Notes: generated by a model from the letters alone, not told the origin. Shown: positions 17,602 to 49,448, counted from the stretch's first letter. The stretch: 64,000 nt of DNA from an uncultured Clostridium sp. (GCA_947244325.1 CAMXJY010000001.1:171322-235321), one strand, 5' to 3'. Program-made: numbers and translations.

Positions 17602-17628
17602 TAGACAAAACCTCGGTCCCCATGTCTA
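17602..17628. repeat. palindromic element copy A: TAGACAAAACCTCGGTCCCCATGTCTA (overlaps the stop of the downstream minus gene)
   Basis: 6-bp stem + 15-nt loop. The loop is the reverse complement, with 1 mismatch, of the copy at 24125-24151. Confidence 0.6.
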
Positions 17629-18162
17629 TTTTTTATCATCAAAATTTATAAATTTACTTACGAATCCAACTATAGCGGTTGAATTTTGTTTTGCTATTTC
17701 TTTTGTTACTGCTTTTCCTCCAACTGTAAGTGATGCTACTATAGCACTAAATACAAATTGTATTTGTGAACTCATTCCATAATTTTCTGTAAGCTTTAAT
17801 GCAATCATTGCACTTATTGCTCCACTAAGTACTCCACATATATCTCCTATTACATCTGCACAAAAATTTGATACTTTTGCAGAATTTCTTATCATTTTTA
17901 TAGAAGTTTTTGCTCCTTTTATTTTTTTACTTGCTTGTGCATGAAAATCTTCTTCATTTGCTACTGTAACTGCTACACCTATTAAATCAAATAAAACACC
18001 TACTAAAATTACTAATATTAAAACTATTACTCCTAATATTATATTTAATTTTGAAATTGCTGTATTTGATATATATGAAAATAGCAATGATAGAATAAAA
18101 GTGGTAATAGCTATTCCTATTACCCAACTATTGTTATTATTTTTTTTCGATTTTTCTTTCAT
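17626..18162 (-). CDS. membrane protein with a nucleoside-recognition (Gate) domain, SpmB-like
   Basis: 178 aa with 2 N-terminal TM helices. C-terminal SGAISAMIALKLTENYG resembles the SpmB/Gate-domain SGAAALGVTAELIKTYG. Assignment tentative. Confidence 0.4.
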   Translation of the reverse strand: MKEKSKKNNNNSWVIGIAITTFILSLLFSYISNTAISKLNIILGVIVLILVILVGVLFDLIGVAVTVANEEDFHAQASKKIKGAKTSIKMIRNSAKVSNFCADVIGDICGVLSGAISAMIALKLTENYGMSSQIQFVFSAIVASLTVGGKAVTKEIAKQNSTAIVGFVSKFINFDDKK

Positions 18163-18439
18163 AGTATTCTTTATAATTAATTCTCCTTATTTTACATATA
18201 TTAATTTGATTCTTATTTTTTAGAAAATTTAAGTTTAAAAATTTTCTAAAAAATAATGAATGATTTTTACTATATAACATTTATAACTTTTTAATATAGA
18301 ACAAATCTGAAAAAATCTCAGATTATTTCAGTAAATTTGTTCGTGTGCCAAATTTATGCAATAAATTTGTGTACAATTTTTAGCGAAGCTTTTATATAAT
18401 AGGAAAGTATCACTTTCCTATTATAAAATAAATTATAAT

Positions 18440-19010
18440 TGGTAGGAACTTAAGTAAACTTTACGGTTTAGGTCTAGCAGATTTTCTCTATTTTTCACTT
18501 TCTATTACTAGAAAGCCGTTTCCGTTTAAGAAAAATACCCCTCATGCGAGGTCGCCAGATCACCACTTAAATCCGTACCTTAATCCTTAAATTCCCATGC
18601 TTATAATTTTAAGCAAACACTCTAGAAATTTTCTTTGAGTATCCTTGCCTGCTATTAGTCTTTTTTGCAACAAAAGTTTCATAATCAAATATAAAAAAGA
18701 TATGGCCGATATCTAAATTATATTTAAACGATTAATCCCCAGTTATCACTCAAGACAGTCATTACCACTACATAACAGATTGCTATATAGGTTTACCTAT
18801 TCAAATGAATAAGTCTCAACGAAAACAGGAATCATCTGTATGCCATTACAGGCTATCCTAATTTCTTTACTCTTCAGGACCACGCAAAACTGGGCGTAAT
18901 GCGCAGACTCTTGAAAAACTTCGACTGATAATACTTTCTAGTAGATTTTTAGGCCCACCCTCATAACAGGAGTGATACACTAGAATAATGCACCAATGCG
19001 ATATATTATA
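18440..19010. ncRNA. candidate large structured non-coding RNA (unclassified); ORF-free, locally GC-rich (~40-45% against a ~25% background)
   Basis: The 1066-nt gap between genes (18163-19228) has no ORF >=60 aa. The core has CG-containing, non-repetitive, GC-enriched stretches (gcgaggtcgccagatcaccac, ccacgcaaaactgggcgtaatgcgcagactc, aggcccaccctcataacaggagtg) typical of structured RNAs in AT-rich Firmicutes. Confidence 0.3.
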
Positions 19011-19228
19011 TCAGTTTGATATTTTTTTAGCAAATCTTTTGCCAACTTCTTTTAAAATGAATTTGCATTTTGCACTTATCAAAAATTAATTTATCTCTTT
19101 GATTCTCTTTTTTTCTTTCTTATACTATATAATTCTTGTTGTAAGATTTTTTAATATTCTAAAAAAAATTAGGCTAAAATAAAGTTGTTTCTATGGAAAA
19201 TGTTATTTATGCTTTTTTATATTTTATT

Positions 19229-24124: not shown

Positions 24125-24151
24125 TAGACATGGGGACGGAGGTTTTGTCTA
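24125..24151. repeat. palindromic element copy B: TAGACATGGGGACGGAGGTTTTGTCTA (opposite orientation to copy A), plus a partial copy at 24182-24195
   Basis: Same 6-bp arms and a 15-nt loop complementary to copy A. It lies in the divergent pgi/rqcH promoter region, so it is not a terminator here. Confidence 0.6.
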
Positions 24152-24323
24152 AATAATTTTAATGTTTAAAGAAAACATTCATCCCATGTCTAAAATTTAC
24201 TCTTTTCAGGTTGACTTTTTATCCTCTAAGCTATATTATATTAAGTGTTTTTTAACATTAGCAAAGTATTCATTTTATAGGAAATGCGAAAAACTTTACT
24301 ATAAAATTTAAAGGAGATTATAT

Positions 24324-26960: not shown

Positions 26961-28154
26961 TTATTTTGTTACTAATTCATATGTGTCCTTTGCTATTATT
27001 AATTCCTCATTTGTTGGAATTATATATATTTTTACTTTAGAATCTTCTGTTGAAATACATTTTTCTTTTCCTCTTGTTTTATTTGCTTCTAAGTCTAATT
27101 TTACTCCAAATGGTTCTAAATATTTGCAAACTCTTTCTCTTGTTTCAATTCCATTTTCTCCAACTCCACCAGCAAAAGTTAAAACATCTAATCCACCAAG
27201 TGAAACTACATATTGTCCTATATATTGAGCTATCTTATATGCTTGACTTTCAAGTGTAAGTATAGATCTTTGGTCTCCCATGTTGTATCCATCTTCAATA
27301 TCTTTATAGTCTAATGATACTCCAGATACTCCCCATGCTCCTGATTGTTTATTTAATATCTCTTCTATATCTTCTGGTCCAAGATTATCTCTTTTCATAA
27401 TATATGGAATTATTGCTGGATCTATATCTCCACATCTTGTTGCCATAGGAATACCGGCTAGTGGTGTTAATCCCATACTTGTATCAACAGATTTCCCACC
27501 ATCTATTGCACATATTGATGCTCCTTGACCTAAATGACAATTTATTACTTTTAAATTTTCTTTATTTTCTCCTATAAGTTCTGCTACTCTTTGATCTACA
27601 TATCTATGGCTAGTTCCATGAAATCCATATTTACGAATTTTATAACTTGTATAATATCTATATGGTATTTGATATACATATGCTTTTGCTGGCATTGTTT
27701 GATGAAATGCTGTATCAAATACTGCTACCATTGGAACATTTGGAAGAGCATTTCTTGCAGCCTTTATTCCTGCTACTCCCGCTGGATTATGAAGTGGTGC
27801 TAAATCAATACATTTTTCAATCTCACTAATAACTTCATCATTTATTATAACTGACTGGCTAAACATTTCTCCACCATGAACTATTCTGTGTCCTACTGCT
27901 CCTATCTCTTCTAAACTGTTTATTAAATTATATTCAGGTTTTTGTAATACTTCTAAAACAAAGCTTATTGCTTCATCGTAATCTCTAGCAATATGCAATA
28001 ATTCTTCTTTGTTTCCATTTATATTTAATTTAAGTGTTGTTTTCATTCCACCTATTCTTTCAAAATTTCCTTTTGCCATTCTTTCATTTGTATCCATATT
28101 TATAAGTTGAAATTTAAGTGATGAACTTCCACAATTTAAAACTAATATTTTCAT
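26961..28154 (-). CDS. ackA: acetate kinase (copy 1)
   Basis: 397 aa with MKILVLNCGSSSLKFQL and acetate/propionate kinase family motifs. Confidence 0.9.
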   Translation of the reverse strand: MKILVLNCGSSSLKFQLINMDTNERMAKGNFERIGGMKTTLKLNINGNKEELLHIARDYDEAISFVLEVLQKPEYNLINSLEEIGAVGHRIVHGGEMFSQSVIINDEVISEIEKCIDLAPLHNPAGVAGIKAARNALPNVPMVAVFDTAFHQTMPAKAYVYQIPYRYYTSYKIRKYGFHGTSHRYVDQRVAELIGENKENLKVINCHLGQGASICAIDGGKSVDTSMGLTPLAGIPMATRCGDIDPAIIPYIMKRDNLGPEDIEEILNKQSGAWGVSGVSLDYKDIEDGYNMGDQRSILTLESQAYKIAQYIGQYVVSLGGLDVLTFAGGVGENGIETRERVCKYLEPFGVKLDLEANKTRGKEKCISTEDSKVKIYIIPTNEELIIAKDTYELVTK

Positions 28155-28291: not shown

Positions 28292-29491
28292 CTATTTTCC
28301 TTCTACAATTCTCTTTGTATCTCTTGCTATAACCATTTCTTCATCTGTTGGAATTACAAATGCTGCAATTTTAGAATCATCGGTAGAAATTTTCTTTTCT
28401 TCACTTCTTACATTATTTCTTTCTAAGTCTAACTTTAATCCCATCCATTCTAAGTTTTCACAAATTTTCTTTCTAATGTTTATTTGATTTTCACCTATAC
28501 CACCTGTAAATACAACTGCGTCAATTCCTTTTAATGATACTGCATATTTTGCAACAAATTGAGCTATAATTTTTGTAAATAATTCTATTGCAACTTTAGC
28601 TTTTGGTTTATCATCTTCATATGAAGCAAGTTCTATTTCTCTAAAGTCTGGATTCAATCCTGTTATACCATATAATCCTGATTTTTTATTTAATACAGTT
28701 GTTACTTCTTTAGTAGTTAAATTTTCTCTATCCATTATTTCTGTTACAACAGCTGGGTCTAAATCTCCTGAACGTGTAACCATTGCAATTCCACTTAAAG
28801 GAGAAAGTCCCATTGATGTTTCTATAGATTTTCCACCATCTATAGCACATATTGATGCTCCTTGACCAATATGGCATGTAACCATTTTTATTTCTTCTAT
28901 AGGTTTTTCCATTAATTTTGCACATAATCTTGAAACATATTGATGAGATGTACCATGAAATCCATATTTTCTAATTCCATATTTTTCATAATATTCATAA
29001 GGAATTGGATATAAATAATTTTCTTGTGGGATTGTTTGATGAAATGCTGTATCAAATACACCAACCATAGGAACTCCTGGCATAGCTTTTTGGCAAGCTC
29101 TTATTCCACGTATTGTTGCTGGATTATGAAGTGGTGCAAGTGGTGAACATGAATCATATTTTGCAATTACATCTTCATCTATTCTAACTGATTCACTAAA
29201 TTTTTCTCCACCATGACATAATCTATGTCCTACTGCAGATATTTCTGATAAATCTTTTATTACTCCATAATCATTATGAACTAATTGTTCTAAAACTATT
29301 TTTAAAGCCTCTTCATGATTCATTACAGGAACTTTTGTAACATATTTTTCTCCATTAACTTTATGAGTAACAAAAGCTTCTTGTTCTCCTATTCTTTCAA
29401 AATTTCCTTTTGCTAAAAGTTTTTCACCTTCCATATCTATTAATTGATATTTTAATGATGAACTTCCACAGTTTACTACTAAAATTTTCAT
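28292..29491 (-). CDS. ackA: acetate kinase (copy 2, divergent paralog, ~55% identity to copy 1)
   Basis: 399 aa with MKILVVNCGSSSLKYQL. Same family, clearly diverged. Confidence 0.9.
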   Translation of the reverse strand: MKILVVNCGSSSLKYQLIDMEGEKLLAKGNFERIGEQEAFVTHKVNGEKYVTKVPVMNHEEALKIVLEQLVHNDYGVIKDLSEISAVGHRLCHGGEKFSESVRIDEDVIAKYDSCSPLAPLHNPATIRGIRACQKAMPGVPMVGVFDTAFHQTIPQENYLYPIPYEYYEKYGIRKYGFHGTSHQYVSRLCAKLMEKPIEEIKMVTCHIGQGASICAIDGGKSIETSMGLSPLSGIAMVTRSGDLDPAVVTEIMDRENLTTKEVTTVLNKKSGLYGITGLNPDFREIELASYEDDKPKAKVAIELFTKIIAQFVAKYAVSLKGIDAVVFTGGIGENQINIRKKICENLEWMGLKLDLERNNVRSEEKKISTDDSKIAAFVIPTDEEMVIARDTKRIVEGK

Positions 29492-29672: not shown

Positions 29673-30665
29673 TTATTGAGCTTGGACAGCAGTAATAGCC
29701 ACAACCCCCGCAATATCCTCAGCAGAACATCCTCTTGATAAATCATTAACTGGTCTTGCAATACCTTGGCAAAGTGGTCCATATGCTTCTGCCTTTCCTA
29801 ATCTTTGAGTTAATTTATATCCTATATTTCCAGCATTCAAATCTGGGAATATTAATGTATTAGCATTTCCTGCAACATTACTATTGGGAGCTTTACTTTT
29901 TGCTACTTCTGGAACTATTGCTGCATCTAATTGTAATTCTCCATCTACTTTTAATTCTGGGTATTTTTCTTTTATCATGTTAGTTGCATCTATAACTTTT
30001 TGAGTTAATTCTGACTTTGCACTTCCCATTGTAGAATAAGAAAGCATTGCTACTTTTGATTCTTTTCCTACTAATTGTTCAAAGCTTTTACTTGAAGAAT
30101 TAGCTATTTCTACAAGTTCTTCTGAACTAGGATTTTGATTTAATCCACAATCTCCAAAAACAAATACTCCATCTTCTCCATATTCGCATTCTGGTACTAC
30201 CATTAAAAAGAATGCTGATACTAATTTAGTTCCAGGTGCTGTTTTTAAAATTTGAAGTGCTGGTCTTAAAGTATCTGATGTTGAATGAATTGCACCTGAA
30301 ACAAGTCCATCTGCTTCTTCTAATTTTACCATCATCATACCAAAATACACTTCATCTTTTATTAATTCTTCTGCTTTTTCTAAGGTCATACCTTTTTCTT
30401 TTCTAAGTTCATATAATTTCTCTGCATATACTTTACTTTTTTCTGATTTTAAAGGATTTATAATTGTTGCTTTTGAAATATCTAATCCCTCATCATTTGC
30501 CATTTTGTTTATATTTTCTTCATTTCCTATTAGAATTACATCAGCATATCCTTCTTTTAAAACTGTAGCTGTAGCTTTAATTGTTCTAATATCACTAGCT
30601 TCTGGTAATACAATTTTTTTTATGTCTTTTTTTGCTCTTTGTTTTATCGTATCAATAAAGTTCAT
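29673..30665 (-). CDS. pta: phosphate acetyltransferase
   Basis: About 330 aa from the internal Met (MNFIDTIKQRAKK...); the ORF extends 9 codons further upstream. Pta family pattern throughout. Confidence 0.9.
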   Translation of the reverse strand: MNFIDTIKQRAKKDIKKIVLPEASDIRTIKATATVLKEGYADVILIGNEENINKMANDEGLDISKATIINPLKSEKSKVYAEKLYELRKEKGMTLEKAEELIKDEVYFGMMMVKLEEADGLVSGAIHSTSDTLRPALQILKTAPGTKLVSAFFLMVVPECEYGEDGVFVFGDCGLNQNPSSEELVEIANSSSKSFEQLVGKESKVAMLSYSTMGSAKSELTQKVIDATNMIKEKYPELKVDGELQLDAAIVPEVAKSKAPNSNVAGNANTLIFPDLNAGNIGYKLTQRLGKAEAYGPLCQGIARPVNDLSRGCSAEDIAGVVAITAVQAQ

Positions 30666-30764
30666 TATTTTTTCCTCCATAAATCTAATCAAAATAAATT
30701 TATTATTAGCATTTAAAATTAATTAATTCTAATAATATTTTATTAAATAACTTGCTTAAATCAA

Positions 30765-39638: not shown

Positions 39639-41492
39639 CTATTTTTTCTTTAAGATTACTCCTGCTTCATTTTGGAAAACTAAATCATATTTATCAATTG
39701 ATTCGTATTTGTCTCCTGTAAATAATACGAAGAATTCTTTTTCATCTTCTTTCATCCAATCATCTACACTTGTTTCAACTACTGCTTTTTGTAAATCATT
39801 TATAGATTCTCCGCCACAATTTATTCTTGATATAACATAAATCCATGCTTTACAGTTTGTATTCATTCCACCTACTAACATATTCTTTAATGTTAATCCT
39901 TCTACTTCTCCCATAGCTTCTGCAAGTTTTACTCTATTTGCATCTACTATACAAGAAACATTTATATTAGCTGTAGCTGCCACATTTGTTTCATAATAAA
40001 TTCCTGCCATACTATGTGTTCTACAAGGGTCTATATTATATACACTACTAGCTTCTATTAATGTTGGAGCTTTTTGCTGAAGTTTATCTTCTGTTCCTGA
40101 AACTGCTACATATATAATTAAACACCAAGCTACTAAATATGTTATAAGTGCTACTTGTAATTCTTTATTTTCATTAATATCACACATTACTTCTACCGCT
40201 ACTTCTACTACTAATATCCATAATATATAGTAAATTTTATAATAGTAATATGCTGATACTATTCCTACTATTGCACCTGCAAATGTAACTAAAGCTTGAG
40301 CTCCTAATATAATTAAAGCTACTGATTGATAATTAAACTTTTTACTTTTTATTGTCTTATAAACAAATATTGCAAGTAGTGGTATATAGAATAATAAGTC
40401 TTGATATAAAGATTTATAAATTCCACCATCAAATCCTATTGCATCTGTTAATTTATTTTGGTCACTGTCTGTAAATGTTGGTATTACTAAATAAAGTATT
40501 GCTAAAACAGTAACTACTAATAGTAATCCTGTTATTATTAATGTTGATTTTTTGAAAATTTTTAAATAACTTTTTTCGTCTTTTTTTGCAAAGTCTTTTA
40601 TAAAAACATATATACAAATAAATGCAAATAATGCTGGTACAAATAAGCAGTATGAGAATATTATTCCTATACCCATTAATATTATTAAACTTAATATTGT
40701 TATAAAGTTTGCTTCTTCTTTATCATATATTTTAGCTAAATAGAATAATCCTGTTGCAAAAGCTATTCCTGTACTTAAATATGAAAATCCATATAATAAA
40801 CTTGTATATGGATATGCAAATGCATATAGTATTAAAAATACTATTCCTATTGCATAATTTTGTTTTGTTTTTAATTTATCTGATATTAACATATAGAATC
40901 CTAATACATTTAGTAATAAAATTCCCATTTCAAATATTTTAAAAGTTACAAAATCTTTAAATTCTGGCATTATGCTTCTTACAACACTCATAAAGATTCC
41001 TGTATTTATGTATGCTCCTGTTTGCATTGTTTTAAAATTATATCCAGTTTGATTATCTATTTTTGAAAGTACTTTCATATTATCTGCAAAGTTTGTGGCA
41101 GCACTATAATGCATACAAGCATCTACTGATGCATTTGCCATAGTTTTTGAAAGTGGAGCATATTGAGACACTGCCATATAACATAAAATTATTACTGCAA
41201 TGGCTACACCTACAAAATCCCTTTTTCTAATTTCAAAACTTTGTATTTTTTTATCTTTGTAAATTTTAAATCCTAATCCTGCTGTTACTACTAAATCTAC
41301 AATTGATAAAAACAACAAGTTCGTAGTAACATTTAATACTCCAAATATCATACATACCATAATATTAAATGCTAAGTATGCTATTAGTGAAATTATACAC
41401 CAATTAATTAAATTTACTTTTTTATCACTTTTCTTTACTAGCACAAAACTTGCTAGCATAGCAATAACTGTTAAACAATAGAAAATTCCCAT
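39639..41492 (-). CDS. polytopic membrane protein, GT-C-like (paralog of 41569..43683); candidate membrane glycosyltransferase/polymerase/oligosaccharyltransferase
   Basis: 617 aa, more than 12 TM helices plus a C-terminal soluble domain. N-terminus MGIFYCLTVIAML... is paralogous to MGILYIITLIILG... of the next gene. Confidence 0.5.
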   Translation of the reverse strand: MGIFYCLTVIAMLASFVLVKKSDKKVNLINWCIISLIAYLAFNIMVCMIFGVLNVTTNLLFLSIVDLVVTAGLGFKIYKDKKIQSFEIRKRDFVGVAIAVIILCYMAVSQYAPLSKTMANASVDACMHYSAATNFADNMKVLSKIDNQTGYNFKTMQTGAYINTGIFMSVVRSIMPEFKDFVTFKIFEMGILLLNVLGFYMLISDKLKTKQNYAIGIVFLILYAFAYPYTSLLYGFSYLSTGIAFATGLFYLAKIYDKEEANFITILSLIILMGIGIIFSYCLFVPALFAFICIYVFIKDFAKKDEKSYLKIFKKSTLIITGLLLVVTVLAILYLVIPTFTDSDQNKLTDAIGFDGGIYKSLYQDLLFYIPLLAIFVYKTIKSKKFNYQSVALIILGAQALVTFAGAIVGIVSAYYYYKIYYILWILVVEVAVEVMCDINENKELQVALITYLVAWCLIIYVAVSGTEDKLQQKAPTLIEASSVYNIDPCRTHSMAGIYYETNVAATANINVSCIVDANRVKLAEAMGEVEGLTLKNMLVGGMNTNCKAWIYVISRINCGGESINDLQKAVVETSVDDWMKEDEKEFFVLFTGDKYESIDKYDLVFQNEAGVILKKK

Positions 41493-41568: not shown

Positions 41569-43683
41569 TTATCTATTAATTTTAGCTACAAATCCATTTT
41601 CGTTTTCAAATAATATTTCTATTTCATCCATTTGCTTAATTTCTTTTAATTCTTCTTTATATTTGTTTAGTTCTGTTTGTTCTTCTATTACAGTTTGTAC
41701 AATATATTTCTTTTCTGGATTACTAATTGCAGTTTCTACTGTGTAAGGTGTCATATCTTGAACAAAGTTTTCATATTTTATATCATCACTTGTAATTTCA
41801 AGTAATGCTGTTGCCCAAATTCTATTATAATAATATCCGCCTGTTAATAATTCTATATTATTTGCTGTTAAGTCTTCTATATTTTCTCTTGCATATTTTA
41901 CAATTTCTATTTCATTAGAATTAAAGTTTTGCATTAAATCTATTAATTTTCTATGTTCACAATTTTCTAAGTAATATATTCCTACTAAATTTGGAAGTGA
42001 ATGTTTTTTCTCTTCACTTATTACATGACCTGATTTTATCCAAACCCATCCACATACAAAAACTGCCCATATAACTACACATGTAAATCCTGTAGTTTTT
42101 AAGTTAATTTTCTTTAATTTTTCAAATTTCTCAAAATTGATTTTCTTTAGTATTTCTGGAAGTACTACATATAATGCTAAGAATAAACCTATAGATATTC
42201 CTACATATACTTTTGCTGCATTTACTAATATTTTAAACTTTTCTTCTACTGGTAGTGCAGATTGCATTACTGCAAATGTTCTCGAATGTATTAAAGCATA
42301 AAATAATATACTAAATAATGCAAATATTATTGCATCAATTCTAAATTGCTTCTCTTCTATGTACTCATTCATTAAATCTATAGTAACCGCAAATATAACC
42401 ATCCACATTATAAAATAAACTTTAAGCATATAATATGGTGCTACTAATCCATATCTTAATCCTAAATATAAACAAGCTAAACATCCCATTATGCATACTG
42501 CAAAAACATCCATATATCTTAAATTTTTATTTTTAATTCTTTTTATTAATTCAGCAAAATATAAAACTGCAAATGGTATATATGGTATAAAGTTTGTGAA
42601 TTTTTCTGAATATATTGCTCCATCTATTTTTAAAGCATTTACTAAATCAGTTTGTCCTTCTATATAAAATGTTGGTATAAACAAATAGCAAATTCCTACA
42701 GCTGTTATTACAAGTAACATTCCAGTTACAATTAAAGTAGTTTTCTTAAATATTTTTAAGAAAGTTTTTCCTTCTACTGTAAAATCCTTTAAGAATGTAT
42801 AAATACATATACCTGCAAATACTGCTGGTACAAATAAACAATATGAGAATATTAATCCTGTCCCACAAATACCAATTAATGCAATTACTAAAGCTTTATT
42901 TATTTTCTCTTTAGAATAAAGCATTTCTACTACTGTTAAAAGCATAGCTACCATCATTATTCCCACTGATAAATATGAAAATCCATAAATCCATGAGTTA
43001 TATGGATATCCATAAATATATAATGCAAATAAAATTACTGTTCCAATTAATCCTTTTTTAGTTTCTACTTTTTCCATAACTGCTGAATAAAATGCAAATC
43101 CACTTAAAAATAATACTAAAGTTTCAAACATTTGATATATGTAGCAATGGTCAAGTCCTGTAATCCCATTTATTACATTCATAAATATACCATCATTTAT
43201 ATATGCACCTGTTTGCATTACATTAAAATTAAAAAATGTTTTATCTTCTACATTTACAAATATATTCAAATTATCTGAATAATGTTTTGCTGCTCTATAA
43301 TGAATTGATGAATCAACTGCAAAATGTGTTATATCGCCTTTATATATGTATAAATCTTTTACAAACATTACTGTAAATATTGCTAAAATAATTACAATTC
43401 CTGCAATATCTAATTTTCTAACAAAATATTTTTGAATATCTTTGTATCTTATTACTCTATAACTCAAAACAAGTGCAACTACTAAATTTATTATAGATAA
43501 AAGCCAAATATCTGCTGTAATATTTAATAGACCTAAAACCATTCCGATTACAACATTATATCCAAATAAGGATACAAAATAAATTATTAGCCATTTGATA
43601 AAGTTAATTTTTTCATCTGTTTTTTTGAACATCATAAAACTTATTCCAAGTATTATTAATGTGATTATGTACAATATTCCCAT
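41569..43683 (-). CDS. polytopic membrane protein, GT-C-like (paralog of 39639..41492)
   Basis: 704 aa, many TM helices + a C-terminal extracytoplasmic domain. Preceded by a conserved 37-nt motif. Confidence 0.5.
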   Translation of the reverse strand: MGILYIITLIILGISFMMFKKTDEKINFIKWLIIYFVSLFGYNVVIGMVLGLLNITADIWLLSIINLVVALVLSYRVIRYKDIQKYFVRKLDIAGIVIILAIFTVMFVKDLYIYKGDITHFAVDSSIHYRAAKHYSDNLNIFVNVEDKTFFNFNVMQTGAYINDGIFMNVINGITGLDHCYIYQMFETLVLFLSGFAFYSAVMEKVETKKGLIGTVILFALYIYGYPYNSWIYGFSYLSVGIMMVAMLLTVVEMLYSKEKINKALVIALIGICGTGLIFSYCLFVPAVFAGICIYTFLKDFTVEGKTFLKIFKKTTLIVTGMLLVITAVGICYLFIPTFYIEGQTDLVNALKIDGAIYSEKFTNFIPYIPFAVLYFAELIKRIKNKNLRYMDVFAVCIMGCLACLYLGLRYGLVAPYYMLKVYFIMWMVIFAVTIDLMNEYIEEKQFRIDAIIFALFSILFYALIHSRTFAVMQSALPVEEKFKILVNAAKVYVGISIGLFLALYVVLPEILKKINFEKFEKLKKINLKTTGFTCVVIWAVFVCGWVWIKSGHVISEEKKHSLPNLVGIYYLENCEHRKLIDLMQNFNSNEIEIVKYARENIEDLTANNIELLTGGYYYNRIWATALLEITSDDIKYENFVQDMTPYTVETAISNPEKKYIVQTVIEEQTELNKYKEELKEIKQMDEIEILFENENGFVAKINR

Positions 43684-43720
43684 AATTCTTCCCCTTACAA
43701 ATTTTTTTAATATATTTCTA

Positions 43721-43763
43721 AATATTTGCCACGCATCCTATGGGAGGCTTGCAAAAACTAATA
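43721..43763 (-). promoter_or_regulatory. conserved leader motif copy 1 (..TATTAG(T/C)TTTGCA(A/G)G(C/T)CTCCCATA..GCGT.. on the minus strand)
   Basis: About 37-nt block with roughly 75% identity to 48261..48297. Both sit about 35-90 nt upstream of large membrane-protein genes. Confidence 0.4.
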
Positions 43764-45009
43764 CATTTTCTTCTGTTCTTTATGCATGATAATTTTAGTA
43801 ACTATTGTATACATTATAAATTGTATAGCCAAAGTTGTTGTACACGAAAAAGTTGCTCCATTTATTCCTAGTCCTAAATTTCCTACTAATACATTTGAGC
43901 CTATAAAAGCTATAATCATTGAAATAATATAAATTACAAATTGCACAAACGTATGTCTTATTGTTGTTAATGTTACTAGATTTATATAAGATATTGCATA
44001 GAATATATATGAACCAATTATTACACATAAATTCATTCTATATGCTTTTAAATCTAATCCATATATTAATCCTAAAAATTCTGGTCCAAGTAAGAATGCT
44101 GCAAGAACTGCAAATCCACCAAAAGCTATAACTATTAATTTTATTTTAAAAGTTACCTTTTCAATTTCTTTTAGTTCTTTTCTTTCATACATGTCTTTTA
44201 GTTTTCCTAAAAATGGCATTACTATAAATTGTGTAAATAATGTCATTACTGTTGCTGGCATCATTATATATCCATATATTGCTTGAATGTCTTCTGTTAA
44301 GTAACTGTCTATTGCATACTTTGGAGCATTTAATATGTATATTCCTGCAAATGAATTTACAAATACAAAAAATTCAGATTTTAAAATTTGTAAAACATTT
44401 TTCATATTTACTTTATTTGTATTATCTATAAGTTTTCTTGTAATTATAAAATAATCATATATTACTAACACAAAAACATTTACAATTATTACTGCTAAAC
44501 ATGCAAGTCTTAAATCTCTTGTAATTAAATCTACTATTAAAAATAATGCTATTCCGAACAAATCCCTTTAACGTTAAAGATTGTCCTGATTTATATAAAA
44601 TATCATTTTTTTGCATTACACCATAAAGAATATCTGAAAAAGCCTCTAATCCTTTAAATATCGCAAGTAATGCAAATATTGTAGTTTTAAATGTTGGATA
44701 TTGTTTTATACATAAAAATCCTGTTGCTCCAATAAGCATCAACATACATGTAATAAATCTATTAGTTATATAATCTTTATCTTTTATTTTATTTTCTATG
44801 TCTGTTACTTGACATAGTCTTCCAGAATACATTGCTAATGTATAAAGTATTGTTGCTGTAGCATATGCTATTGAAAATATACCTGCTGTTTGAATATCAT
44901 TAACTCTTGTTACTATAATTAAAAAAAATAGTGAGTTAAATGAGTTTATTCCAGTTCCTAAACTATTCCATATAAAATTTTTCAAAAAAGATTTTTTTTC
45001 TGAATCCAT
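43758..45009 (-). pseudogene. wzx: Wzx-type (MOP/polysaccharide biosynthesis family) flippase split by a 1-nt frameshift (184-aa N-part + about 265-aa C-part)
   Basis: N-part MDSEKKSFLKNFIWNSLGTGINSF...IVTRV..AGIFS matches the Wzx N-terminus; the C-part continues the TM helices. Frames rejoin if one C is removed from coding GTT-C-GGA-ATA (+ strand ttccGaacaa, ~44545). Confidence 0.6.
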
Positions 45010-45917
45010 TATAAAACTCCTAATATAAAAATTATCCTTAAAGCTAAATCATCTACTAAACTTTTTCTAATTCTTTTTGGATAAAATGCCTTTTTTAAAG
45101 CTATAAAGAAATTATATTTTTCTTTTGAAAATAAATCTAAAATCTTTTTATTTTCTTCTGATAATTCTTCATAATATATATCTTTAAAATTAATCATTTG
45201 TTGCTTAATATCTTTCATTCCATTTTTGAATAATAGATTTTTTATTCTCCAAATAAGTAATCTAATATATCCTTGACCTTCTGATGTTGCATTCTCTTTT
45301 CTTCTTCTATATTTAACAGTTACAACATTGTTGTATGCAACATTTCCCAAACCTATACACAATATGTAAGTCCACCAATCATGAAAGAAACATGAATTTG
45401 GCATTTTTTCTATAATCATATCTCTTGTTTTTTTATTTACTGTCATTGTCATTCCTTGACCAACACAAGCAAATAAAGATTTTAAAAATGAATATTCTTT
45501 GTCTTTTTCTCCTGCTGATATAAAATTCATATTTTCATCATAATAATCTGAATTTCCAAAAACCATATTAGGTTTTTCTTCATCTAATTCATTTAAAGCA
45601 TTTACTGCAAGTTCAATTTTATTTTCCATCCAAATATCATCTTGATCTGCATATGAATAATAATCCGCTTCAGCAAGTTTTAATAACTCGAAAAAACTTT
45701 TTACAAATCCAAGATTTTCACCTTGAAATAATTTTATATTTTCATATTTTTCTTGATATTCTTTTATTATTTCTACTGTTTTATCTTTTGAACCATCATC
45801 TCTTACAACTAACTCTATATTTTTATAAGTTTGATTTAATATTGAATCTAGTTGCTCTCTTATAAAAGGCTCTCCATTATATGTAGACATTATTATTGCT
45901 ACTTTCTTATCTGCCAT
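45009..45917 (-). CDS. glycosyltransferase family 2
   Basis: 302 aa (VAIIMSTYNGEPFIREQLDSILNQTY, DDGSKD, QDD). Confidence 0.75.
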   Translation of the reverse strand: MADKKVAIIMSTYNGEPFIREQLDSILNQTYKNIELVVRDDGSKDKTVEIIKEYQEKYENIKLFQGENLGFVKSFFELLKLAEADYYSYADQDDIWMENKIELAVNALNELDEEKPNMVFGNSDYYDENMNFISAGEKDKEYSFLKSLFACVGQGMTMTVNKKTRDMIIEKMPNSCFFHDWWTYILCIGLGNVAYNNVVTVKYRRRKENATSEGQGYIRLLIWRIKNLLFKNGMKDIKQQMINFKDIYYEELSEENKKILDLFSKEKYNFFIALKKAFYPKRIRKSLVDDLALRIIFILGVL

Positions 45918-45999
45918 TTTCTAGTCCTTTCAGGGGTTAATTTTAAGTATAATTCTTTTTTATATTTCATTCACATTCAAATCTTACTGTTTAAAATAA

Positions 46000-48171
46000 T
46001 TATTTAACTTTATAAATATACATTCCATCTTCATTATAGATTTCTTCAAATTCATCTTTAAATGATTTCTCACTAAAATCTTCTTTTGAAAGAATATATT
46101 TTATATTTAATTTTTCTAAATCTTTATAATTTAATTTAATTGCTACATTATCTGCATATAATAACTCTACATCTGATTCTTCGTCTGTAACTTTAAAGTT
46201 TATATGTGCATATCTATTATATGTTATTCTATTTTCTTCAGCTTTGTCTCCTAAAATTGTTTCAAATAATTCTAAGTTTGGATACACTCCTGTTGAATTT
46301 ATTGTACGAATTCCATTTGCTACCGCATAATCATTTATATACCATCCATCTTCATGTACAGCCCATATAGCATCTGGATCTGTTTCTTTTATTTCTTGCA
46401 TTTTAATAGCAACTGGTTTTGTATAGAATATATCTGTTGTTCTAATTACTGGATTTACAGTTAGTCCAGACATTAAAGCTATTATAATTAATCCGTATAT
46501 AGTATAATTTTTAATTTTTTCATTATTGATATTTAAAATGCCATAAATTGCTGCTCCAAATATTTCAAGTGATACTAACATCTTAAAATTATCTAAATAA
46601 TTTGGATTAAAATCAAGTGTTGATTTTGCTTTATAAGCAATAAACAATGTAAATAAAACTGTTAAAACATATGTAACTTTTTTATTTATTAGTTTATCTT
46701 CTTTTTCAAAATTTCCAATTAAATAAATTAACATATAAATACATACTGTACCAAGTGGTATGCTTACTCTTCCAGCTGTTGTCATAGACATTTTTGTTAT
46801 TTTAGCTAAAATTTCTGGAAATCCAAATACACACCAAATACTTAAGAAACCACCAACAACTAACATTGGAATCCAAAAATGTAAATCTTTTTTATTTCTT
46901 AAAACATAAATTAATCCAAGTATCATTGGTATTGGGAAAAATGATAACATGCTTGACACTTCACAAGGATTTGGAAAATCATATTTAGGTAAGAAAATAT
47001 CATAAAAATATGAATATATATTTCTTGATCCTCCACCTACTTCGCATCTTTCTCCTGGATAATCTGTACTCATTTCAGCAACAAGTGTATCTTTTGATAA
47101 GCTATACCATCTTCCAAGCAATAGTACTAAAGCAATGACAGTAACTAATATTACTACAATATCATGTTTATTAAATTTGTAATTTCCATATTTTATATTT
47201 TTGATAGCTATCCATATTACTAATGCTAAGAATAAATATCCAAATGATAATTGCCATGCTGGATAAAATACAAATATATAGGATAGTCCCGCAATTAGTA
47301 TTCCAAGTGCGCATAAATATTTATTTCTCTTTTTATCTGTGTTCATAAATTTATCTAGTAAGACAATTGCAATTTGTCCCCATAAAAGAGTATCCATACA
47401 ATACCACCATTGTACTGCTGATGAAAATGTTATTACTAACATTCCACATAAAGATACTTTTTTATTTTTCTTTGTTAGTATTAAGCATAATTCATAAGAA
47501 CCTAGTAACATTGCTGTTAATCTTGCATACCAATAAAAGCTTAATCCTACATCATTTCCAAATAATAAAAATCCTATTTGAAATGGTCTTCCAAGCATTA
47601 AAATATCTGCTACAGGTGCATTAGCAACTGTAAACATATCTGTATCTGTTCCTCTTAAAACATTATTAAAATAACTAAATGGATGCTCCGCTTTACTTTG
47701 AGATAATATGTATGTAGTTGAAGTTGCCCATTCATCAGTTCTTATTGGTCTTGTATTTCCAATTAATGTATGATATCTTGTATCATCATGATGTGGTTGT
47801 ATTAATCCATTCCATATATGAAAATTTACTATTGATGAGCCTGAATATTTAAAAACCATTACAAATAGTAAAAAGGCACAAGCAATTTTGTACCTATGAT
47901 TATGTATAAATTCATACATTTTTGAAAGTTTAAATACGAAATGTAATCCTATAAACATAAATATTATAGAAACTAACATAATTCTATTTTTTGAAATAAA
48001 TTCTGGATGTGTTTTTCTAAAAATTGTATATTCACATGCAATTGATAATAAAATAGAAACTACAAAAACTAACACAAGTTTTATTTTTGTGCAATTTTCT
48101 TTATTTATAAAATATTTAAATTTATCTTCACAAGTTTTATATAAACTTCCAATTTTCTCATTAATATTCAT
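46000..48171 (-). CDS. large polytopic membrane protein (GT-C/YfhO-like?), candidate glycan polymerase or transferase
   Basis: 723 aa, many TM helices and a C-terminal soluble domain. Preceded by conserved motif copy 2. Confidence 0.45.
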   Translation of the reverse strand: MNINEKIGSLYKTCEDKFKYFINKENCTKIKLVLVFVVSILLSIACEYTIFRKTHPEFISKNRIMLVSIIFMFIGLHFVFKLSKMYEFIHNHRYKIACAFLLFVMVFKYSGSSIVNFHIWNGLIQPHHDDTRYHTLIGNTRPIRTDEWATSTTYILSQSKAEHPFSYFNNVLRGTDTDMFTVANAPVADILMLGRPFQIGFLLFGNDVGLSFYWYARLTAMLLGSYELCLILTKKNKKVSLCGMLVITFSSAVQWWYCMDTLLWGQIAIVLLDKFMNTDKKRNKYLCALGILIAGLSYIFVFYPAWQLSFGYLFLALVIWIAIKNIKYGNYKFNKHDIVVILVTVIALVLLLGRWYSLSKDTLVAEMSTDYPGERCEVGGGSRNIYSYFYDIFLPKYDFPNPCEVSSMLSFFPIPMILGLIYVLRNKKDLHFWIPMLVVGGFLSIWCVFGFPEILAKITKMSMTTAGRVSIPLGTVCIYMLIYLIGNFEKEDKLINKKVTYVLTVLFTLFIAYKAKSTLDFNPNYLDNFKMLVSLEIFGAAIYGILNINNEKIKNYTIYGLIIIALMSGLTVNPVIRTTDIFYTKPVAIKMQEIKETDPDAIWAVHEDGWYINDYAVANGIRTINSTGVYPNLELFETILGDKAEENRITYNRYAHINFKVTDEESDVELLYADNVAIKLNYKDLEKLNIKYILSKEDFSEKSFKDEFEEIYNEDGMYIYKVK

Positions 48172-48260
48172 CTTTTAAATTCCTTTTATTTTATATTTTA
48201 TCTTAATTATAAATAAAGCTTTATACATTTATTCATATTTTTCAAATAATAAAAAATAAA

Positions 48261-48297
48261 GTGACGCGCAGTATGGGAGACCTGCAAAGCTAATATG
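48261..48297 (-). promoter_or_regulatory. conserved leader motif copy 2
   Basis: See 43721..43763. Followed by the 9-bp hairpin ATGTTTCAA/TTGAAACAT (48295-48316). Confidence 0.4.
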
Positions 48298-48407
48298 TTT
48301 CAATTTATTGAAACATGGTCGACCAGTAAGGAACGCTATTTTTTATTATTTCAAAAACATGAATAAATAACAAAATACTTTTATATATAACTATTAATAA
48401 AAATAGA

Positions 48408-49448
48408 TTACCATTTTACTTCTAATTTCACTACATCTAATAAAAATCTATTTACCCAAATATAAACTATAGGTAAATGAATTCTATAAAATAAATGAAC
48501 TCCCCAAATACAAATATGTTTAAATCCTTTTGGAAGGCAATGTACAATTCTAAAGTGCTTACTATTTTTCCATTCTGGGAAATTTTCATTTAAGTATGTT
48601 ATAATCTCTTTTAAAGCTTTATTCATTTTTACTGATTTATCATATGATAGCATAAAAGCCCAAGATATGGCTAAATGTAAAAATGCCATAGTAGCTAATG
48701 TTTCTTTATATTCTTCATATTTTCCAATTTTAACAGCATGTTCTTTAGTTACAAGTAAGTATTTCTTTAAATTTTCTATATCTTTAGAATTTAAAGAATG
48801 TATTTGTGAGCTTGAACGTAAATAATAATGATATAAAACATCTGGTATAAAAGTTAGTTTTTTAACTCCATCCATATATGAATGAATTAAAAATAATGTA
48901 TCATTACATCCTCTAAAAGGTAAAAATTCTAAATGTTTAACCTTTTCTAATCTATATAATTTATTCCATAAAGAAGGGTTTGCATATACTATAAAATCAT
49001 CATTCCAATCGACTTCTTTATTCATTACTCCATATTGTGTCATTTCTGTTGAAACTACTTTTCCTGTTTCAAGTTCAACTCTATCATATCCACAAAATGC
49101 TATATCAGCATCATTTTCTTTTGCTGCATTATATAATTTCTCAGCCCATGTAACTTCTGGAATATCATCACTATCAATAAATCCGACATATTCTCCTGTA
49201 GCTTGTTTTAATCCATAAGTTCTTGCTGACCATTCTCCACCATTTTCTTTATGAAAAGTTTTTACTTTGTTTGGATATCTTTTTTTATAATCCTCTATAA
49301 TTTCTGGTGCTGAATCTGTTGAGCCATCATCTACACAAAGTATTTCTATATCTTCTAAAGTTTGATTTACAAGTGCATCTAAACATTTTGGAATATATTT
49401 TTCTAAATTATATATTGGTACAACAATAGAAACTTTTACCGAACTCAT
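48408..49448 (-). CDS. glycosyltransferase family 2
   Basis: 346 aa (VSIVVPIYNLEKYIPKCLDALVNQT, DDGSTD, DSDD). Confidence 0.75.
   Translation of the reverse strand: MSSVKVSIVVPIYNLEKYIPKCLDALVNQTLEDIEILCVDDGSTDSAPEIIEDYKKRYPNKVKTFHKENGGEWSARTYGLKQATGEYVGFIDSDDIPEVTWAEKLYNAAKENDADIAFCGYDRVELETGKVVSTEMTQYGVMNKEVDWNDDFIVYANPSLWNKLYRLEKVKHLEFLPFRGCNDTLFLIHSYMDGVKKLTFIPDVLYHYYLRSSSQIHSLNSKDIENLKKYLLVTKEHAVKIGKYEEYKETLATMAFLHLAISWAFMLSYDKSVKMNKALKEIITYLNENFPEWKNSKHFRIVHCLPKGFKHICIWGVHLFYRIHLPIVYIWVNRFLLDVVKLEVKW

Follow-up and report, generated by a model that had tools for sequence, protein, structure and literature searches.

A lineage-restricted structured intergenic element, and a putative relic of a second copy, in a surface-glycan locus of an uncultured gut Clostridium

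An intact structured element between two glycan genes

The DNA analysed here is a stretch of 64,000 nucleotides from an uncultured Clostridium sp. (GCA_947244325.1, CAMXJY010000001.1:171322-235321; hereafter the window), which has a GC content of 25.9% and carries nearly all of its open reading frames (ORFs) on the minus (-) strand. Relatives retrieved through its proteins lead to the clade Candidatus Scatovivens of the Clostridiaceae, known from gut metagenome-assembled genomes. The part of the window from 37 to 64 kb is a cell-surface glycan locus, in which a sequence-only reading had noticed a motif of about 37 nt ahead of two large membrane-protein genes and had proposed a shared regulatory element coordinating them. 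Both motif stretches are present where that reading placed them, and their similarity is that of a genuine shared element. The alignment and the covariance model of the larger structure, however, show that the motif is not a unit: it covers the junction and 3' box within a core of 83 nt, which a long AT helix encloses. Here, we report that this element belongs, as a new member restricted to its lineage, among the structured intergenic elements, a broad class; the window holds one intact copy, element B, and what we read as one relic, copy A.

Element B lies in a spacer of 236 nt (48172-48407) that holds a strong inverted repeat, the outer arms of which are paired end to end by RNAfold. The folding z-scores of the element are -5.3 (sense strand) and -5.4 (antisense strand), and its core has 41% GC as compared with 26% in the genome. 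Its parts are the following.

48229-48366, - strand: whole element B, an AT-rich outer helix of ~30 bp (arms ~48341-48366 and 48229-48257) around a GC-rich core
48258-48340, - strand: conserved 83-nt core, variant B1, at the apex of the ~30-bp AT-rich palindrome
48320-48334, - strand: 5' box GTTCCTTACTGGTCG, with a CU-rich bulge UUCCU(U) and the 5' strands of helices P1b (UAC) and P2 (UGG)
48295-48316, - strand: hairpin P3, ATGTTTCAA-TAAA-TTGAAACAT, a perfect stem of 9 bp
48283-48294, - strand: junction ATTAGCTTTGCA, consensus WTAGCTTYGM, predicted to be unpaired; it corresponds to the TTGCAAA..CTAAT part of the motif noticed earlier
48262-48279, - strand: 3' box CTCCCATACTGCGCGTCA, the 3' strands of P2, P1b, and P1a; its reverse complement contains TATGGGAG

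Three variants and compensatory pairing

The alignment (A3) and the covariance model (R1) were built on three distinct variants. B1 is that of the window, and the core in L066, a 99% strain, is identical to it; B2, in L063, with flanking genes ~93% identical in DNA, differs from B1 by 10 substitutions; and variant S comes from Candidatus Scatovivens faecipullorum (genes 74-86% identical), where it sits in the spacer between the flippase gene and a 688-aa orthologue of the 704-aa membrane-protein gene of the window, i.e., it occupies the position of copy A and not that of element B. The 5' box (GTTCCTTRYTGGTCG), the junction, and the 3' box (CTCCCAYACTRCRCGTCA) are conserved across B1, B2, and S. 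Between the window and S. faecipullorum, 14 of the 15 positions of the 5' box and 17 of the 18 positions of the 3' box are the same, and L063 has two substitutions in the 3' box, both of which preserve pairing. Lineages with flanking genes only 74-86% identical in DNA, and with intergenic flanks too different to align, still have boxes that are ~87% identical.

The helices differ among the variants. P2b is GACC/GGTC in B and GGTTG/CAACC in S, and P1b is UAC/GCG in B1, UGU/ACA in B2, and UGC/GCG in S; the 9-bp P3 of B is replaced in S. faecipullorum by a hairpin of more than 18 bp (GTTTTCAAAATC...GATTTTGAAAAC). B (GAAATAATAAAAAATA...) and S (TTTTGTTGATATATTTT...) have outer arms of unrelated sequence, which in both copies pair over at least 24 bp; the S. 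faecipullorum copy folds with z = -7.7. The substitutions between B1 and B2 spare P2, P2b, P3, and the box cores, and four of the 10 fall within the three P1b pairs, improving their pairing.

In the three-variant alignment, 92% of the cells pair and double-sided changes are seen in 4 of 13 pairs, namely GACC/GGUC versus GGUUG/CAACC and C-G versus U-A in P1b. The observed pairing was equalled by 7 of 500 shuffles, and only 26-59% of the cells pair when the partner is slid by 1-3 columns. P2 and P2b were independently predicted by RNAalifold. The covariance model R1 scores element B at 105.5 bits (E = 1.2e-28) and the copies in L066, L063, and L016 (S. faecipullorum) at 99, 108, and 87 bits, respectively, and it gave no other credible match in the window or in nine representative loci. 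A secondary structure backed by compensatory changes is therefore seen in three distinct sequences, and we consider that the compensatory pairing indicates a structured nucleic acid, probably an RNA read on the sense strand. That base-pairing was at work here had already been suggested from the bases around the TATGGGAG core, and this part stands; the self-contained ~37-nt unit with its own flanking pairs does not.

Copy A and the genes at both sites

The genes around both motif copies are co-directional with short spacers, and the start of the operon falls outside the window. The features needed for the comparison of the two sites are listed here.

43731-43763, - strand: copy A, junction and 3' box only; the TAG at 43758-43760 is the stop codon of the Wzx-like ORF
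48408-49448, - strand: gene upstream of B, a GT2 glycosyltransferase (Pfam Glycos_transf_2, E = 4.6e-37)
46000-48171, - strand: gene downstream of B, a 723-aa polytopic membrane protein (Pfam DUF7657, E = 1.9e-100, and DUF7654, E = 1.6e-35) with ~10 hydrophobic segments
43758-45009, - strand: gene upstream of A, a Wzx-like flippase (weak Polysacc_synt match), split into ORFs 44455-45009 and 43758-44561
41569-43683, - strand: gene downstream of A, a 704-aa polytopic membrane protein without family match, a tandem paralogue of 39639-41492
43678-43685, - strand: UUAUGGGA, over the AUG start of the 704-aa gene; its complement in copy A is UCCCAUAG (43738-43745)

On the sense (-) strand copy A reads TATTAGTTTTTGCAAGCCTCCCATAGGATGCGT (43763-43731) and copy B reads TATTAGCTTTGCAGGTCTCCCATACTGCGCGT. 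Aligned on this strand, TATTAGtTTTTGCAaGcCTCCCATAggatGCGT of A (43763-43731) and TATTAG-cTTTGCAgGtCTCCCATActgcGCGT of B are identical in 26 of 33 columns (~79%) with one gap. The plus (+) strand 17-mer pattern TATGGGAGNCYTGCAAA, which was derived post hoc from the data already seen, matches the window only at 43739-43755 and 48272-48288, against 0.03 matches expected from shuffles. With a scoring that allows for 26% GC, the A-B alignment score was reached by 1 of 3000 shuffles of either region (p ~3e-4).

One could ask if the resemblance is a coincidence of a GC-rich patch, with B the only member of the element family in the window. The A-B pair is the third of 930 intergenic comparisons and lies inside a continuous tail of scores (24.8, with other pairs at 26.3, 24.3, and 24.1); nhmmer gives E = 0.2-0.4 (local 0.22-0.38), blastn-short does not report the pair, and A against the S copy alone is not significant. 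Taken alone the similarity is thus borderline at the level of the window. Against coincidence stand the pair-specific shuffle probability, the order and spacing of a match that spans both junction and 3' box, and, what makes the similarity credible to us, the same orientation of A and B and the location of A in exactly the spacer whose orthologue holds the full element in S. faecipullorum. We regard coincidence as improbable.

A leftover 3' end of duplicated upstream genes, which the sequence-only reading had named as one finding that would undo it, is ruled out: the gene upstream of B is a GT2 gene, and that upstream of A is a frameshifted Wzx-like gene. Nor does a common gene end account for the similarity, because the upstream genes differ and the downstream proteins have no detectable homology. 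Both downstream genes encode large polytopic membrane proteins with 10-14 hydrophobic segments, but no homology is detectable between the 723-aa and 704-aa proteins.

Copy A has no 5' box, no 5' strands of P2 and P2b, and no P3, i.e., the 5' two-thirds are missing and the Wzx-like ORF fills that space. It is undetected by the covariance model at E <= 10, and its fold is not significant (z = 0.2). Even in the 99% strain L066 it carries two substitutions within the motif (CTCTCATA, GCGTGTC), with the B core unchanged. With its 5' two-thirds missing, unseen by the covariance model, and accumulating substitutions, copy A cannot be a second functional copy of the same structure; we read it as the relic of an older copy, at the very position where S. 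faecipullorum keeps an intact one. The element's structure could not form there. At most, a free UCCCAUAG of copy A might pair with UUAUGGGA around the start codon of the 704-aa gene: an 8-bp helix of the two appears in both the minimum free energy and the centroid folds of 43655-43765, which overall are not significant (z = -0.1), and we keep this anti-start-codon pairing as speculation.

Some observations concern these neighbouring genes in their own right. The two flippase ORFs (184 aa and 267 aa) overlap in the window, L066, and L010/L067, and the gene is intact (417-420 aa) in L011, L013, L019, L021, L063, and L070; the split gene is probably either a frameshift pseudogene or a case of programmed shift. 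The 617-aa (39639-41492, - strand) and 704-aa (41569-43683, - strand) tandem paralogues, related through repeats D5, D8, and D10, have 12-14 hydrophobic segments and no Pfam or NCBIfam match, and all members seen of their family, an uncharacterised family of membrane proteins in glycan loci, begin with AUGGGR.

Tests against known classes

Rfam 15, run on the whole window at the gathering threshold, reported only OLE (18423-19012), and at E <= 10 nothing in 43000-49000 overlaps the motif. Queries of 146 nt and 211 nt with lax filters gave generic hairpin matches (miRNA, CRISPR-repeat) far below threshold. ARAGORN found no tRNA or tmRNA in the window. A scan with the intrinsic terminator consensus found none at A or B, and its sole site in 41-50 kb is intragenic and at chance expectation; the run of Us that follows B belongs to the 3' arm of its outer helix, and neither S nor A has a U-tract. 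A sigma-54 promoter (TGGCAC-N5-TTGCA) was considered by eye and dropped, the GG-to-GC spacing in TGGGAGNCYTGCA being 3-4 nt too short.

B and S can be read through in the sense frame (..FLTGR..SFAGLPYCAS..), giving ORFs of 24 and 42 aa, and A is frameshifted relative to B. The only starts of these small ORFs are TTG codons without Shine-Dalgarno sequence, downstream of the conserved 5' box.

Antitermination by a NusG paralogue finds no counterpart here: no NusG_N/KOW match occurs in the window ORFs, and the element sits between internal cistrons. Among all window ORFs of at least 100 aa (64 kb), we also found no transcription factor, recombinase, integrase/invertase domain, or transposase.

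A tentative model of element B

The reading that we favour, and which we hold as possible rather than probable, is that element B is a lineage-specific structured RNA between cistrons of the operon transcript that tunes the downstream cistron, dispensable and decaying, and not a coordinating operator. Element B would be transcribed within the co-directional glycan operon, just before the cistron of the DUF7657 membrane protein. In the model, an AU-rich closing helix P1 (24-30 bp) encloses P1a, P1b, P2 (UGG:CCA), a conserved UC/UC internal loop, P2b, and P3, of which P2b and the hairpin P3 are the variable parts, and a conserved junction, UAGCUUYGC, is left unpaired. Both conserved CU-rich boxes, UUCCUU and CUCCCA, have complements among Shine-Dalgarno and start-codon sequences: UUCCUU complements AAGGAA before the DUF7657 gene, and UCCCAUA complements UAUGGGA at the start of the 704-aa gene. 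An AU duplex of this length is a typical kind of RNase III substrate. The long duplex may be a determinant of RNase III-type processing or of stability, and/or the CU-rich boxes may modulate ribosome access; by either route, expression of the downstream cistron would be adjusted against that of the glycosyltransferase genes that precede it. Copy A would be the truncated remainder of a second, older copy.

A bolder version, which we find doubtful, would see element B and its relatives as a class of regulatory RNA not described before, placed between cistrons of surface-glycan operons in one uncultured genus of gut clostridia. Boxes and junction would bind a factor or a ribosome-binding site, and expression of the large membrane proteins of glycan assembly would be gated through processing, control of translation, or an antitermination like that of EAR; copy A would be a constitutive anti-start-codon hairpin.

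Several observations weigh against the tuning RNA. No element is found at position B, i.e., the spacer orthologous to that of element B, in L010/L067, L013, L015/16, L019, and L070, or at position A, that of copy A, in L013, L019, L021, L063, and L070. Among the S. faecipullorum contigs read, a rearranged form (L015:14340-14420) is commoner than the intact one (L016:14374-14600). The element is dispensable, having been lost or rearranged repeatedly in relatives, which speaks against an important role. The cores of B1 and B2 have diverged by 13%, roughly as much as third codon positions (14.8%, taken as the synonymous rate), and short-term constraint is therefore not demonstrated. The covariation statistics are thin, since they come from three distinct full sequences of one uncultured genus. 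Promoter-like matches number 65 where 82 are expected by chance, and there is neither a terminator nor an evident expression platform. The choice of strand by folding energy is inconsistent among the copies, the conserved UC/UC loop becomes a tandem G-A pair on the antisense strand, and the palindromic, strand-symmetric architecture fits a DNA-level element equally well.

The proposed coordination of the two genes is unsupported, with the element absent from the orthologous leaders of most close relatives and no regulator encoded in the 64 kb. One site holds the element intact and the other a decaying fragment of it, and most close relatives lack it; this is no conserved switch for two genes.

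Distribution among relatives and collections

The search of relatives, which the sequence-only reading had called for, did find further occurrences of the motif. At position B, the element is present only in the window, L066, and L063. L010 (92% relative) and L067 have there a short AT palindrome with a 10-nt loop in place of the ~120-nt element, and the gene identities give the phylogeny ((L063,L010),(window,L066)), from which it follows that L010 lost the element. In L070, the spacers at positions A and B are merely 23-27 nt.

Per genome, the element is single-copy: blastn, nhmmer, and the covariance model found no further copy in the window. Among 185,579 species genomes, the 18-mer of the 3' box has 21 matches, 20 of them chance matches in GC-rich taxa and one real, in the S. 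faecipullorum representative, where it is single-copy. The two-box pattern has 19 matches in metagenomes, of which two are real and both represent the same S. faecipullorum locus. This narrow distribution is a lower bound because exact patterns would miss diverged variants such as B2. BLAST against plasmids and phages gave chance-level matches only. A viral sequence (L043:139-156; IMG/VR, 44% GC) has a 20-nt exact match to CTCCCACACTGCGCGTCAAC, which makes up the loop and 5' arm of a terminator-like hairpin (CCTCCC...GGGAGG, T-run) and which we judged to be chance as its context is otherwise unrelated. Decayed copies that we thought to see by eye at position A of L010 (ttgctggctg..aggtttctaagactacgcatca) and at position C of L010 and L013 are unsupported by nhmmer and the covariance model.

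The patchiness brings us to the main rival, that element B is a neutral or selfish palindromic DNA insertion, similar to a miniature inverted-repeat transposable element (MITE) or to REP or ERIC, which landed at the tips of AT-rich intergenic hairpins and is decaying without any regulatory role, with the A/B resemblance due to shared descent of two insertions. Its presence varies among very close relatives, as the 10-nt palindrome loop of L010 illustrates, and the phylogeny implies a clean loss there. Other, sequence-unrelated GC-containing hairpin repeats occupy the same spacers, at position A of L063 and at position B of L021. Short-term divergence near the synonymous rate, a structure symmetric on both strands, and a palindrome-mediated inversion and deletion variant that is common in S. 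faecipullorum all agree with such an origin.

The families concerned are multi-copy, whereas the covariance model finds one copy in 64 kb, the S. faecipullorum representative has one, and the collections hold one real 18-mer match and the same single locus twice. The flanking inverted repeats are unrelated between B and S, no target-site duplication is recognisable at the junctions in comparison with L010, no transposase or recombinase lies nearby, and there is no similarity to plasmids or phages. Finally, conserved boxes and compensatory helix changes over ~22% gene divergence would be unexpected in a decaying neutral insert. We consider the insertion somewhat unlikely.

The hairpin of L021 (71% relative; 9790-9960) stands before the DUF7657 gene and has a different GC-rich core within a ~25-bp AT palindrome (z = -3.7). 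We tried it as a homologue of element B and rejected it, the similarity being not significant on either strand. The repeat of L063, in the spacer between flippase and 704-aa gene (10434-10497), consists of two tandem 41-nt copies of a second small repeat, tAGACATGGGGACsGAGGTTTTGTCTAAA, placed exactly at the position of copy A. This repeat is unrelated to the element and also occurs in the window at 17603-17625 (-) and 24128-24150 (+), where 0 are expected by chance, with a partial inverted copy near 24181-24193.

Strand and orientation

If the palindrome is read from the other side, the element could be a small RNA gene of its own, encoded on the antisense (window +) strand and with TATGGGAG in the RNA. 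The invariant UC/UC loop then reads GA/GA, a tandem sheared G-A motif (UGG-GA-GACC / GGUC-GA-CCA) of a kind that commonly stabilises RNA. The antisense folds are the more stable ones for B2 and S, and on the + strand the core is preceded, at a distance of ~7 nt, by a -10-like AATAAT, part of the match TATACA-17-AATAAT at 48222-48250. The promoter-like matches are, however, below chance in this AT-rich DNA, no consistent terminator is seen (on the + strand, no U-tract follows the core of S), and such an RNA would be antisense to nothing coding. The G-U wobbles favour the sense strand by ~5 to 1: they are found on the sense strand at pairs 5-101 and 13-98, at one pair in P1, and in GUG/CGU of L066, and favour the antisense strand at one position only. 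An antisense gene thus seems improbable to us.

Orientation bears on a further alternative, a protein-binding or recombination site acting at the DNA level, i.e., an operator, an attC-like site, or an inverton that would make surface glycan genes phase-variable. A segment of ~80-100 bp between inverted repeats of 20-30 bp, upstream of surface-polysaccharide genes, would suit this, as would the one population variant with an inverted 5' half. The intact S. faecipullorum haplotype (L016 type), however, has one orientation at position A in all eight of its contigs, and so have, at the contig level, the window strain, L066, and L063, so that every full copy (8/8 S copies and all B copies) points the same way relative to the co-directional genes. 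In the second S. faecipullorum haplotype (L015 and 15 similar contigs), the 5' half is inverted, the 3' box and 141 nt upstream are gone, and the flippase ORF is lengthened from 419 to 436 aa. With deletions on both sides, this is not a reversible flip; it looks like palindrome-mediated template switching. A recombinase site would be expected to keep its inverted repeats rather than its interior, and here the repeats vary and the interior is conserved; the conserved boxes are not palindromic, operator-like sequences, and neither a recombinase nor a regulator is encoded in the 64 kb. We take this alternative to be very improbable.

Other features of the window

The glycan locus adjoins rlmN, PP2C, and PknB, and its genes comprise many GT2 glycosyltransferases, GtrA, a GtrII-like protein, MFS, a Wzt ABC ATPase, the Wzx-like flippase, and three large polytopic membrane proteins. 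The GT2 genes at 53042-54559, 55834-57300, and 57328-59205 (- strand) contain internal direct repeat families D1-D4, 71-83% identical at a spacing of ~2.6-2.7 kb, which point to recent tandem duplication of glycosyltransferase genes. In L010 (793-1540) and also L067, the glycan locus carries an inserted module of toxin-antitoxin type, a nucleotidyltransferase and HepT-like gene pair, which the window does not have.

Outside the glycan locus, the OLE (ornate large extremophilic) RNA at 18423-19012 (-) is full-length (277.7 bits, E = 1e-77, model positions 1-616), and a 178-aa ORF (17626-18162) without Pfam match lies directly downstream of it. The presence of OLE marks the source as an anaerobic Firmicute. 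Two adjacent full-length acetate kinase genes (26961-28154 and 28292-29491, -) stand beside a phosphate acetyl/butyryl transferase gene (29673-30692).

Comparison with known systems

The practical value of the element is limited, as it comes from one uncultured genus in three sequence variants and is evidently dispensable. For similar cases, it tells us that a short GC-rich motif common to two AT-rich leaders can be an intact structured element plus a decaying fragment, and that the orthologous intergenic regions of close relatives quickly show whether such a motif is a conserved regulator.

RNase III processing hairpins are known between cistrons, e.g., the sites of the phage T7 early mRNA and the stems of rRNA operons. 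Element B resembles them as a duplex of at least 20 bp with internal loops between cistrons of a presumed polycistronic transcript. It differs in that its stem is almost pure A-U and surrounds an 83-nt conserved GC-rich core, which those sites do not need.

With ERIC/IRU, BOX, REP, and MITE elements it shares the form of an imperfect palindrome of ~110-140 bp in transcribed intergenic DNA, strain-variable and secondarily rearranged; those families are multi-copy with conserved ends, in contrast to the single copy and unconserved outer arms found here. Invertible promoter switches (the invertons of Bacteroides capsular polysaccharide loci; cwpV and flgB of C. difficile) likewise have inverted repeats around a short segment upstream of surface genes in a gut anaerobe, but the intact element is seen in one orientation, has no recombinase nearby, and conserves its interior instead of its repeats.

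The recruitment sites of ops/JUMPStart, LoaP, and UpxY are cis elements controlling long glycan operons (PMC12691694, PMC11685472), and element B, as a putative cis element of such an operon, would be akin to them. It lies, in contrast, deep in the gene array, without ops-like sequence and with no NusG paralogue in the window.

EAR (eps-associated RNA) is a structured RNA between internal cistrons of the Bacillus eps polysaccharide operon (PMC7858274). Like EAR (the epsC motif of Rfam, Bacillales), element B is intercistronic in a long co-directional Firmicute polysaccharide operon, not in a 5' leader, and is of similar size (~100-120 nt). Unlike EAR, it has no Rfam match, no downstream terminators above chance, and no conservation among close relatives. 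A long AU closing helix is, to our knowledge, not a feature of EAR. Membership in EAR fails for want of an Rfam match; EAR is nevertheless the closest functional precedent. If element B acts on the mRNA, it would join EAR as the second case of an RNA set among the cistrons of a polysaccharide operon in a Firmicute, and it would offer a handle on how the expression of very large membrane glycan-assembly proteins is tuned against that of the neighbouring soluble glycosyltransferases.

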